Assembly: GCA_037142675.1 (NCBI GenBank)
Contig: JBAXAF010000003.1
Span: forward strand, 3,717-67,716
Direction: 5' to 3'
DNA length: 64,000 bases
Origin: Candidatus Berkelbacteria bacterium
Lineage (GTDB): Bacteria > Patescibacteriota > UBA1384 > XYA2-FULL-43-10 > CAINNR01
How positions within the stretch are numbered: position 1 is the stretch's first letter; every line of letters begins with the position of its first letter. Positions 47,502 to 50,306 of this stretch are shown here, piece by piece. The notes beneath the pieces were generated by a model. The model made no database searches. It was not told the origin of the DNA and was given only the letters and a program-made list of their open reading frames with translations. The position numbers were made by a program, and so were the translations under genes.

Positions 47502-50306
47502 ATGAAAGATGCTGATAAAAAGAACTTTTACTGCCTAGATATGTTCCCGTATCCATCGGGAAGTGGTTTGCATGTTGGCCACCCTCGTGGTTATACAGCT
47601 ACCGATGTTTACTCGCGGTTCAAAAAACTCCAGGGTTTTAATGTTATCCACCCCATGGGTTGGGATGCTTTCGGACTTCCTGCGGAAAATTACGCTATTA
47701 AAAACAAAACTCACCCATCTAAGGTTGTCGAAGAAAATGTTGCTCACTTTAAATCTCAACTAGAAAAGTTTGATCTTTCATATGATTGGGAAAAAGAAGT
47801 AAATACCACTGACCCAAAATATTATCGTTGGACGCAATTCATTTTTCTTAAATTGTTTGAACGCGGTTTGGCCTATGAAGCTGAAGTGCCAATCAACTAC
47901 TGCCCATCTTGTAAAACCGGCTTAGCCAATGAGGAAGTTGTTGGCGGAAAATGCGAGCGTTGTGGAACTGCAGTCGAGAGAAAAAATATTCGCCAGTGGA
48001 TTTTGAAAATCACTGAATATGCAGATCGCCTATTGGAAGATTTGGATGGCCTGGATTGGCCAGAACCAATTAAAGAAATGCAAAAAAATTGGATTGGGCG
48101 AAGCGAAGGGAGCAATATTCGCTTCGAGCTTAAAGCGAAAAGCGAAAAGCGAAAAGCTGTGGAGTCGCTAAGCGATGACTATTTTATTGAAGTTTATACC
48201 ACCAGGGCTGATACTTTATACGGTTGCACCTGGGTGGTTTTGGCACCTGAACACATATTAGTTGACAAGTTAAAAGTTGAAAGTGAAAATCAAGAAGAAA
48301 TTAATGAGTATATTCAGAAATCCAAAAACAAATCAGATCTCGAACGAACGGAATTACAAAAAGAAAAAACTGGCGTCGAGCTAAAAGGCATCAAGGCAAT
48401 TAATCCTATAAATGGCAAGGAAGTTGCTGTTTGGGTTGCCGATTATGTCTTGGGCCATTATGGAACTGGTGCGGTAATGGCCGTCCCTGCTCACGATGAA
48501 CGTGACTTCGAATTTGCTAAAAAATATGACATTGATATTATCCAAACGATTGCGCCGCAAGTTACATATTATAAAACTCCACCAAAGGATGGTTTGCCAT
48601 ACGTTGAGAGAAACAGCATCGAAGTCATAGTCCGCGACCCAAAAACTGATAAATACCTTTGTCTAGAGTGGAAGAACCAGCCTTGGACAACATTTGTCAC
48701 CGGTGGTGTTGACGACGGTGAAGATTATCTAAGTGCTGCAAAACGCGAATTTCTAGAAGAAACCGGTTACAAGAACATTAAACTCATAAAATCTCTTGGC
48801 AGAACTCGGGCGGTTTTTCACGCTGCACACAAAAATGAAAATCGAGTTGGTAATATGGAAGGTTTTCTTTTTGAGCTAGTTGATGATGAGCGAAATGATA
48901 TGTCAAGTGACGAAAAAGCCATCCATGAAGTTATTTGGCTTTCGCGTGACGAATTAAAAATTGAGCGCATTGTTTGCGCTAGCTTTGAATACTGGATGCG
49001 CGGAATTGATGACAAGAGAAAAGCAATTGAAGACTACGGATATTTGGTAAATTCTGAGGAATTTAATGGCCTTTCATCTGCTGATGCCAAAAAGAAAATT
49101 ACTGAAAAACTAAAAGAATCTGGTCACGGGGATTTTACCGTTAACTACAAACTTCGTGATTGGGTTTTTTCTCGCCAGCGATATTGGGGCGAGCCAATTC
49201 CTATTGTTCATTGCGAAAAGTGTGGTATTGTTGCTGTTCCCGAAACAGATTTGCCGGTGCTTTTGCCTCATGTTGAAAAGTATGAGCCGACCGGCGATGG
49301 CACATCTCCCCTGTCTAACGAGTCTGATCCTGCAATTGCGGCTTGGCTCAATACCACATGCCCAGAGTGCGGTGGAAAAGCAAAACGTGAAACTAATACA
49401 ATGCCGCAGTGGGCCGGAAGTTGCTGGTACTATATCGCCTACCTGATGAAAACTGGTGATGAATATGTTTGGGATCGCGACAAAATTGACCCCTGGTTGC
49501 CAGTGAATTTATACGTCGGCGGCGCAGAACACGCAGTTCTGCATTTACTTTACTCCAGATTCTGGCACAAGGTTTTGTATGATGAAAAACTAGTTGGTAG
49601 CATTGAGCCATTCCAAAAGTTAATATCAGTCGGAACTATTTTGGGAATTGATGGTGTTAAAATGTCCAAATCGCGAGGTAATGTTATTGACCCTGATCCA
49701 CTGATTGAGAAATTTGGTTCCGACGCTTTAAAAATGTATGAACTCTATATTGGCCCGTTTTCACAACCAGCAAAATGGAGTCAAAATGGAATTGTTGGTA
49801 TGCACCGGTTTCTACAAAAAGTTGAAAAAATTTCAGATGCCGAAATCTCCGAATCAAATTCGAAAAATCTAGTGCCGATTAACAAAGCAATTAAGAAAGT
49901 TGCTGGGGATATTGAAAGTTTTAGCTTCAACACTGCGATTAGCACCTTAATCGAAACATTTGATCTTATTTCGACCAACAGTTGGGATAAACCATCAGCT
50001 GAAATATTTTTAACGCTCCTGTCCCCCTTCGCGCCGAAAATGGCCGAGCAAGTATCGCAAAAAATTGGAATTCAAATACCAATTTGGCCGGAATTCGATC
50101 CGAAGTACATCGCTGATGATAAAGTTACTATTGCTATCCAAATCAATGGAAAAGTTCGCGATCAAATTGAGATCGCAATTGATGAACCAGAGGAAAAAGT
50201 TAAGGAGTTAGTTTTAGAGAGAGAAAAGATAAAAAGCTGGATTTTAGAAGCTAAAATAAAGAAATTTATCTATGTTCCAGGCAAAATCATTAGTATTGTG
50301 GTCTAG
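47502..50306 (+). CDS. leuS: Leucyl-tRNA synthetase, with a roughly 150-aa insertion containing a complete NUDIX domain.
   Basis: HIGH region (HVGHPRGY). Editing domain (...[20 protein letters not shown]). Then an inserted segment with a perfect Nudix box [23 protein letters not shown]. Then canonical [28 protein letters not shown], a KMSKS-type VKMSKSRGN, and the anticodon-binding domain. Confidence 0.9.
   Translation: [934 protein letters not shown]

Follow-up and report, generated by a model that had tools for sequence, protein, structure and literature searches.

Few enzymes are as conserved as aminoacyl-tRNA synthetases, and new catalytic domains found in them have repeatedly revealed editing, signalling or resistance. 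Here, we report a leucyl-tRNA synthetase (LeuRS) whose proofreading domain, CP1, almost certainly holds a genuine, apparently catalytically competent Nudix pyrophosphohydrolase module of a distinct, uncharacterised subfamily, nested in a surface loop. The gene (leuS; 47502 to 50306, + strand) lies in a 64,000-nucleotide stretch, hereafter the window, of a Candidatus Berkelbacteria contig (JBAXAF010000003.1, positions 3,717 to 67,716; GenBank assembly GCA_037142675.1). We put the probability of our best overall explanation, which joins the identity of the module, its evolution as an exchangeable cassette and its function beside the synthetase, at about 0.5.

The host is apparently an otherwise complete, fully functional bacterial LeuRS of a Berkelbacteria-like organism (Patescibacteria, or Candidate Phyla Radiation [CPR]). 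Its reading frame, the only LeuRS copy in the window, is open from end to end (934 amino acids [aa] plus stop), as the preliminary description had stated together with the canonical state of the remainder, and the product scores 968.2 bits with the equivalog model TIGR00396 (leuS_bact; cut-off, 548.4). Its top PDB match is Thermus thermophilus LeuRS (1H3N; E = 6e-199), with which the C-terminus is alignable up to T. thermophilus residue 876. Among 103 aligned LeuRS, the invariant residues include H24, G26 and H27 in the HIGH signature of the class I catalytic core (HVGH, aa 24 to 27; 47571 to 47582, +) and eight editing residues, namely, T233, T234, D237 and T238 in the T-rich motif of CP1 (TTRADT, aa 233 to 238; 48198 to 48215, +) and H331, D332, R334 and D335 in HDERD (aa 331 to 335; 48492 to 48506, +). 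K720 to K723 of the KMSKS motif (aa 720 to 724; 49659 to 49673, +) are conserved in the same alignment. The N-terminal and core part of CP1 (aa 199 to 350; 48096 to 48551, +) and its C-terminal segment, which picks up after the insert with the invariant G513 (aa 513 to 547; 49038 to 49142, +), are both covered by PF13603 (205.9 bits), and they are followed by the second half of the catalytic core (49143 to 49877, +; PF00133) and the anticodon-binding and C-terminal domains (49878 to 50303, +; PF08264 at aa 793 to 899). The editing and synthetic sites are intact, and therefore no lost function is made good by the Nudix domain; compensation for a degenerate editing site was ruled out by the invariance of the editing residues.

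The window protein thus shares with bacterial LeuRS of known structure (T. thermophilus 1H3N/2BYT; Escherichia coli, 4AQ7 family) the HIGH and KMSKS motifs, CP1 with its T-rich motif and conserved Asp, the Zn-binding Cys clusters, and the anticodon-binding and C-terminal domains. It differs from them in having a 162-aa Nudix domain in place of an 11-residue loop, no leucine-specific domain before KMSKS (the alignment to 1H3N skips T. thermophilus residues ∼594 to 635) and a start that falls ∼25 to 30 aa later than in the family consensus. The usual N-terminal IExKWQxxW segment is absent (examined at 47253 to 47580); in-frame stop codons stand upstream of the start, and several close relatives are just as short.

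The inserted domain (aa 351 to 512, 162 aa; 48552 to 49037, +) is recognised by PF00293 (NUDIX) at aa 372 to 487, both in the full protein (E = 3.1e-13; 50.3 bits; gathering cut-off, 21.1) and in the excised segment (E = 2.3e-14; 54 bits). This match is nested inside that of the LeuRS editing domain, since profile positions 1 to 145 of PF13603 correspond to aa 195 to 355 and positions 132 to 184 follow the insert. The alignment to 1H3N breaks at aa 350 (T. thermophilus 362) and restarts at aa 506 (T. thermophilus 374), leaving ∼155 to 162 aa in place of the 11-residue loop of T. thermophilus residues 363 to 373, and close relatives that lack the insert show just a short remaining loop there. 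The module was delimited as aa 351 to 512 because of this alignment break and this short loop. By the same alignment, the insertion site is a surface loop within CP1 and not the junction of CP1 with the catalytic core, since aa 513 to 547 make up the normal last segment of the editing domain. All nine fixed positions of the Nudix signature GX5EX7REUXEEXGU are present in the box (aa 401 to 423; 48702 to 48770, +), the catalytic, metal-binding motif.

The preliminary description, drawn from the letters of the window, had recognised an intact, in-frame Nudix domain with a full catalytic motif in an otherwise canonical LeuRS, and PF00293, TIGR00396 and the predicted models described below bear this out; the segment scores as Nudix and not as a known LeuRS-specific domain, an outcome that the description had named as one that would refute it. 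Its limits for the insert (48560 to 49040) were essentially right and are refined here, and its perfect Nudix box holds, with the coordinates given for it (48701 to 48769) one base early. It had erred in placing the insert at the editing-domain junction, and the distance that it gave between KYDIDI and NYKLRDW (∼150 aa) is ∼200 aa, of which 162 are Nudix.

Conservation of the module was assessed in 95 insert-bearing LeuRS, whose inserts average ∼40% identity. At this divergence, the Nudix box retained G401 (100%), E407 (92%), R415 (94%), E416 (100%), E419 (99%), E420 (100%) and G422 (100%), and residues peculiar to the subfamily were kept just as well (R370, 99%; K444, 100%; N447, 98%; R448, 97%; W479, 99%). 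Position 439 was always aromatic (F in 66, Y in 28, W in 1) and position 440 always F, Y or H (49, 31 and 15, respectively); the window protein has F439-H440. These positions open a motif of the subfamily, F/Y-F/Y/H-A-x-H-K-x-x-N-R (aa 439 to 448; 48816 to 48845, +), a putative substrate-binding element 16 to 25 residues past the box; the subfamily's own motifs are R370, LxWK, HKxxNR and H475..W479. Between the window gene and its closest GTDB relative, the ratio of nonsynonymous to synonymous substitution rates (dN/dS) was 0.049 in the insert (dS, 0.64) and 0.036 in adjacent CP1, which indicates that purifying selection on the insert is as strong as on the flanking editing domain. Catalytic activity of the domain would follow from the conservation of its motifs together with this ratio of 0.049.

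Two subtypes were distinguished. One has the canonical E407, R415 and HKxxNR, and the other has E407 replaced by Q, R415 by A, M or V, and PKxxNR in place of HKxxNR; the three metal-binding glutamates are kept in both. The loss of the E407/R415 pair in one subtype would suit a module without catalysis, acting as a ligand sensor or as a structural or tRNA-binding lobe that tunes the movement of the editing domain (compare NrtR-type regulators and mitoribosomal L46). Noncatalytic Nudix domains normally lose their metal-binding glutamates, whereas E416, E419 and E420 are 99 to 100% conserved here, even in the Q/A subtype, and the box of the window copy is complete, so that we regard such a role as very improbable.

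Structure prediction with AlphaFold2 gave a confident full-length model (predicted local distance difference test [pLDDT], 91.5; predicted template modelling score [pTM], 0.82), with pLDDT of 92 to 97 over the insert and linkers. Modelled alone, the insert reached pLDDT 95.6 and had the canonical strand and helix order of Nudix proteins, and the predicted model shows the alpha/beta/alpha sandwich of the Nudix fold with the box on a loop-helix-loop.

An assembly chimera or annotation artefact is hardly conceivable. The identical 934-aa protein, with the same neighbours, was found in five independent assemblies (one from ENA, two from Logan, a JGI metagenome and a metagenome-assembled genome [MAG] at NCBI), and its layout recurs at hundreds of orthologous loci; misassembly, which had been named as a second way for the preliminary description to fail, was ruled out on these grounds. 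The purifying selection on the insert likewise speaks against a chimera, as does the lack of any anomaly in composition or flanks. The GC content of the insert (0.39 to 0.42) is the same as in the remainder of the gene, and only short chance repeats were found at its flanks, which ruled out a recent mobile-element insertion. No intein or endonuclease domain was found in the window protein with Pfam.

The layout is common among relatives. In a full-length search, most of the 120 best LeuRS relatives carried PF00293, the named lineages among them being Berkelbacteria, Moranbacteria, Buchananbacteria, Pacebacteria, Parcubacteria and 'Patescibacteria group', and local BLAST placed homologous inserts at the same position. 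A GTDB scan (one genome per species; two narrow peptide patterns derived from a 12-sequence alignment) gave 380 confirmed species matches, with a Candidatus Berkelbacteria MAG at the top (94% identity). The labels of the best 80 of these 380 were almost all Patescibacteria lineages, and in 77 of the 80, the Nudix domain lay directly between an upstream LeuRS editing domain and a downstream LeuRS core; the other 3 were stand-alone. Nudix-in-LeuRS is, on this distribution, an old and widespread layout of Patescibacteria and not peculiar to one genome. A word-indexed search with the 170-aa insert alone had suggested a unique fusion, returning seven free-standing Nudix proteins and no LeuRS, its own host included, although dozens share 45 to 80% insert identity; the full-length search and local BLAST overturned that picture, and negatives of word-indexed searches with short domain queries are unreliable.

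A profile search of 1.84 billion representatives returned 170 clusters (50% identity) at E ≤ 1e-30, 585 clusters at E ≤ 1e-10 and 11307 general Nudix matches at E ≤ 1e-3; the subfamily is, by the contrast of 170 clusters with 11307 matches, well separated from general Nudix proteins. Among the best 150, 148 representatives were newly returned, out of which 107 were LeuRS-linked and 27 were stand-alone proteins of up to 210 aa. Public records name the LeuRS relatives of the full-length search 'leucine--tRNA ligase' or 'class I tRNA ligase family protein', with PF00293 precomputed. The MAGs that hold six loci with Nudix-LeuRS of the CPR type (L011, L040, L045, L054, L062 and L082) bear the label 'uncultured Gammaproteobacteria' or 'Candidatus Fimivivens', probably a taxonomic mislabel of automated assemblies.

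The same subfamily occurs in a second synthetase. An archaeal-type prolyl-tRNA synthetase (ProRS; P0258) carries it between the anticodon-binding and C-terminal domains, and four further ProRS (P0276 to P0279) with this layout make up a clade of 5 proteins, whose nearest insert-free relatives (65 to 80% identity) are annotated as Nanoarchaeota or Woesearchaeota. The ProRS copies match the profile of LeuRS inserts at E ∼ 1e-35, share 37 to 43% identity with these inserts and have retained HKxxNR and H..W. Set against Nudix-LeuRS, the host is of class II and the site is a different one, with the same subfamily again in frame, which indicates that ProRS recruited this Nudix subfamily independently of LeuRS. 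At one of these loci (L086; ProRS at 3720 to 5744), a MazG gene and a further, separate Nudix gene are found close by.

Seven free-standing members of ∼160 aa (P0001 to P0007; loci L068, L077 and L084) are 47 to 53% identical to the insert, resemble it over the whole domain, including the N-terminal extension, and keep xKxxNR and H..W; the motif at aa 439 to 448 is kept in stand-alone and ProRS-borne copies alike. They differ from the insert in being unfused, in belonging to the subtype with Q at 407, A, M or V at 415 and PKxxNR, and in standing beside another Nudix gene. The genomic context of the stand-alone homologues showed no link to tRNA or to a synthetase, just this neighbouring second Nudix gene. 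Free-standing members at two further loci (L087, 7478 to 8495; L089, 2583 to 3689) lie divergent from an adjoining second, different Nudix gene.

Within LeuRS, the module behaves as an exchangeable cassette that, to judge from comparisons among relatives, has been lost, swapped for divergent versions and duplicated. Insert identity and LeuRS body identity were uncorrelated (Spearman, −0.07; 4465 pairs). Four proteins (P0014, P0016, P0017 and P0020) have a body 74 to 76% identical to the query and an insert only 27 to 38% identical; three others with 80 to 82% body identity (P0015, P0018 and P0019) lack the insert; and one (P0024; L008) is 64 to 94% identical to the window protein over CP1 and Nudix and 26 to 66% identical in the N- and C-terminal parts. 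Plain vertical inheritance of the insert with the gene was ruled out by the lack of correlation and by the mosaics among these proteins (P0014, P0016, P0017, P0020 and P0024). The comparisons suggest that LeuRS genes of this group are mosaic through within-gene recombination, and they indicate that lineages have lost the CP1/Nudix segment and exchanged it with one another, for which recombination in the strongly conserved flanking sequence is the presumed route. Another locus (L006) is 95 to 96% identical upstream and in the insert and 77% identical just downstream.

In some LeuRS, the subfamily is present two or three times, with the additional copies at a second site, the N-terminal edge of CP1. 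At least three places in CPR LeuRS are hot spots of insertion, namely, this edge, the C-terminal CP1 loop and the core after ∼aa 575. A serine hydrolase domain (PF06821) occurs at the CP1 N-terminal edge or at the third site, and a Ham1/ITPase and a DUF559 endonuclease-like domain are also found in neighbouring loops of CPR LeuRS. Multi-insert LeuRS reach 1558 aa (P0013, P0027, P0030, P0034, P0089, P0114 and P0125; L040, ∼3681 to 4246; L047, ∼3825 to 4252). Inserts of ∼120 to 130 aa with no Pfam match occupy the Nudix loop in P0013 and P0021 and the third site at L015 and L017 (∼3681 to 4075).

The recurrence of hydrolases of different classes at three loops of one target enzyme, and cassette-like gain, loss and exchange of the kind seen in resistance determinants, would suit built-in resistance, in which the Nudix domain, like the serine hydrolases of sister proteins, would destroy a nucleotide-mimicking inhibitor (a Trojan-horse aminoacyl-adenylate analogue) at its target; the isoleucyl-tRNA synthetase (IleRS) with a GNAT domain (NCBIfam NF040702) would be analogous. 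We consider this highly improbable. Known adenylate mimics have acyl-phosphoramidate or sulfamoyl links and not the diphosphate bond that Nudix enzymes cut, and an inhibitor specific to one amino acid is hard to reconcile with a pocket that LeuRS and ProRS copies have in common.

What the domain acts on is less firmly indicated than what it is. Most likely, the substrate is a nucleoside polyphosphate of some kind connected with the chemistry of the synthetase, and it would not be amino-acid specific, because the pocket residues are kept in LeuRS, ProRS and free forms. We tentatively propose, with odds that we place somewhat short of even, dinucleoside polyphosphates of the Ap4A family (ApnA), or Np4-type caps derived from them, as the substrate, hydrolysed beside the synthetase. 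Aminoacyl-tRNA synthetases are the cellular source of Ap4A, which had led the preliminary description to its plausible suggestion of a built-in hydrolase. In the proposed scheme, aminoacyl-adenylate would react with ATP at the synthetase to give ApnA side products, and the Nudix domain would cleave these, or the caps, to mononucleotides near the site of production in a Mg2+-dependent reaction.

The nearest characterised neighbours and the conserved aromatic position lend this proposal modest support. Structural neighbours of the predicted domain were 2azw, RppH, the Rv2985 ApnA hydrolase, DDP1/DIPP, the Ndx1 Ap6A hydrolase and Ap4A hydrolases, at just 14 to 20% identity. Compared with the RppH/ApnA-hydrolase/DIPP group and with the uncharacterised Enterococcus faecalis 2AZW, the insert has its own motifs and is embedded in a synthetase. 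PDB sequence-profile matches were weak (E, ∼1e-7 to 1e-8), and AvrM14 (a decapping effector), NudB and two Ap4A hydrolases headed the list. RppH, NudB, NudE and the other curated NCBIfam Nudix families were all rejected as assignments, scoring far below their cut-offs; the best RppH model (NF001934 to NF001938) reached 27.5 bits against a cut-off of 116, in a match confined to the Nudix box. Positions 439 and 440 lie 16 to 17 residues past the box, within the interval (16 to 18 residues) in which ApnA hydrolases have a marker Tyr.

Several points weigh against hydrolysis of ApnA or caps at the synthetase. The window protein has F439 and H440, and hence no Tyr, at the marker position; neither LeuRS nor ProRS is known as a strong producer of Ap4A; and the neighbours span many specificities (NudB, NudI, ADP-ribose pyrophosphatases and decapping enzymes), so that likeness of fold leaves the substrate unfixed. 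The unrelated enzymes in neighbouring loops (PF06821, Ham1 ITPase and DUF559) fit a permissive platform without coupling, and the insert is dispensable for LeuRS itself, because some close relatives are without it.

The main rival is a hitch-hiking house-cleaning enzyme, which would be a general sanitiser of the nucleotide pool (oxidised, deaminated or noncanonical nucleoside triphosphates, or other nucleoside diphosphate derivatives [NDP-X]) with no link to aminoacylation, residing in LeuRS merely because CP1 loops tolerate inserts and LeuRS is essential and constitutively expressed. Ham1/ITPase is a classic house-cleaner and sits, with the PF06821 serine hydrolase and DUF559, in neighbouring loops of CPR LeuRS; the module has been lost without apparent harm in close relatives; free-standing versions adjoin other Nudix genes and not translation genes; and NudI, NudB and MutT-type enzymes are among the neighbours. 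Against a passenger of this kind, the same specific subfamily was taken up independently by the unrelated ProRS, is overwhelmingly synthetase-linked (the 107 of 148 representatives above) and is present in up to three copies per LeuRS. We judge this rival unlikely, at about one chance in a few.

A hydrolase directed at tRNA ends is less probable again, and we consider it improbable. CP1 takes up the acceptor end of tRNA, and a Nudix domain seated there would remove a 5' triphosphate or nucleotide cap, or a 3'-terminal pyrophosphate, so that charging would be joined to repair or quality control of the tRNA. The best structural and sequence neighbours include RppH and Nudix enzymes that decap mRNA, both hosts (LeuRS and ProRS) bind tRNA acceptor ends, and the conserved R370, K391, K444, R448, W390, W395 and W479 would suit binding of nucleic acid or polyphosphate. 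RppH and NudC act on a 5' triphosphate or a nucleotide cap; the 3' variant would act on the pyrophosphate that toxic RelA/SpoT-homologue enzymes (toxSAS) place on the 3' end of tRNA. Against an action on tRNA stand the copies without a tRNA-binding partner, the scores with the RppH models far below cut-off and a separate RppH-like gene already present in this genome (28892 to 29476).

The boldest form of coupling, to which we give little weight, would have the Nudix domain functionally wired to the synthetase. Carried by the mobile editing domain, it would act on the tRNA acceptor end, taking off a 5' cap or triphosphate or a 3' pyrophosphate placed by a toxin, or it would destroy in cis Ap4A-type alarmones or cap precursors made by the synthetase. 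Aminoacyl-tRNA synthetases of ultra-small symbiotic bacteria and archaea would then have a new quality-control or repair activity, which LeuRS and ProRS would have acquired separately and lineages would have traded as a cassette.

No description of a fusion of Nudix with LeuRS or with any aminoacyl-tRNA synthetase came up in full-text literature searches, in line with the preliminary description, which knew of none, and a PDB search found no solved structure combining LeuRS and Nudix. As far as can be told, the architecture is visible in public databases yet uninterpreted in the literature. CP1 is a known place of lineage-specific insertion, as in the CP1 insertions of Giardia LeuRS. IleRS with GNAT likewise shows an added domain being accommodated by an essential synthetase of class I; the present case differs from other grafted synthetases in that a complete pyrophosphohydrolase is nested in the editing domain and recurs in a class II synthetase.

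Across a large part of the CPR, the LeuRS proofreading domain holds a complete, apparently active pyrophosphohydrolase, and the subfamily extends to a ProRS with its closest relatives annotated among the DPANN archaea (Nanoarchaeota/Woesearchaeota). Were the domain coupled to its host, it would form a direct physical link between aminoacylation and the metabolism of dinucleoside polyphosphates or capped RNA, or a new step of tRNA-end repair; it would explain how organisms with minimal genomes control these nucleotides; and it would be a natural enzyme-in-enzyme cassette exchanged between lineages. If it is a mere passenger, CP1 loops would be a natural, highly permissive insertion platform of use in protein engineering, and the module would still define a Nudix subfamily, hitherto uncharacterised, that forms ∼170 clusters (50% identity).

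Two free-standing Nudix genes lie elsewhere in the window. One is RppH-like (28892 to 29476, +; WQLPQGGIDNGED...REMAEELG; 45 to 50 bits with RppH NCBIfam models, below cut-off), and the other is NudI/MutT-like with an extended box region (16101 to 16628, −; family match below cut-off). What either has in common with the insert does not extend beyond the 24-residue box, and the insert as a duplicate of another Nudix gene of the window was ruled out, as likeness is confined to that box or absent. The two genes had been noticed in the preliminary description and are real; the lineage-specific Nudix expansion that it read from them does not follow, because the three Nudix copies in 64 kb belong to unrelated subfamilies.

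Directly 5' of leuS, two large open reading frames (561 and 262 aa; 44770 to 47253, +) have NHL-repeat-like and Laminin_G_3-like matches and probably encode cell-surface proteins; in related contigs, they are preceded by a sortase gene.

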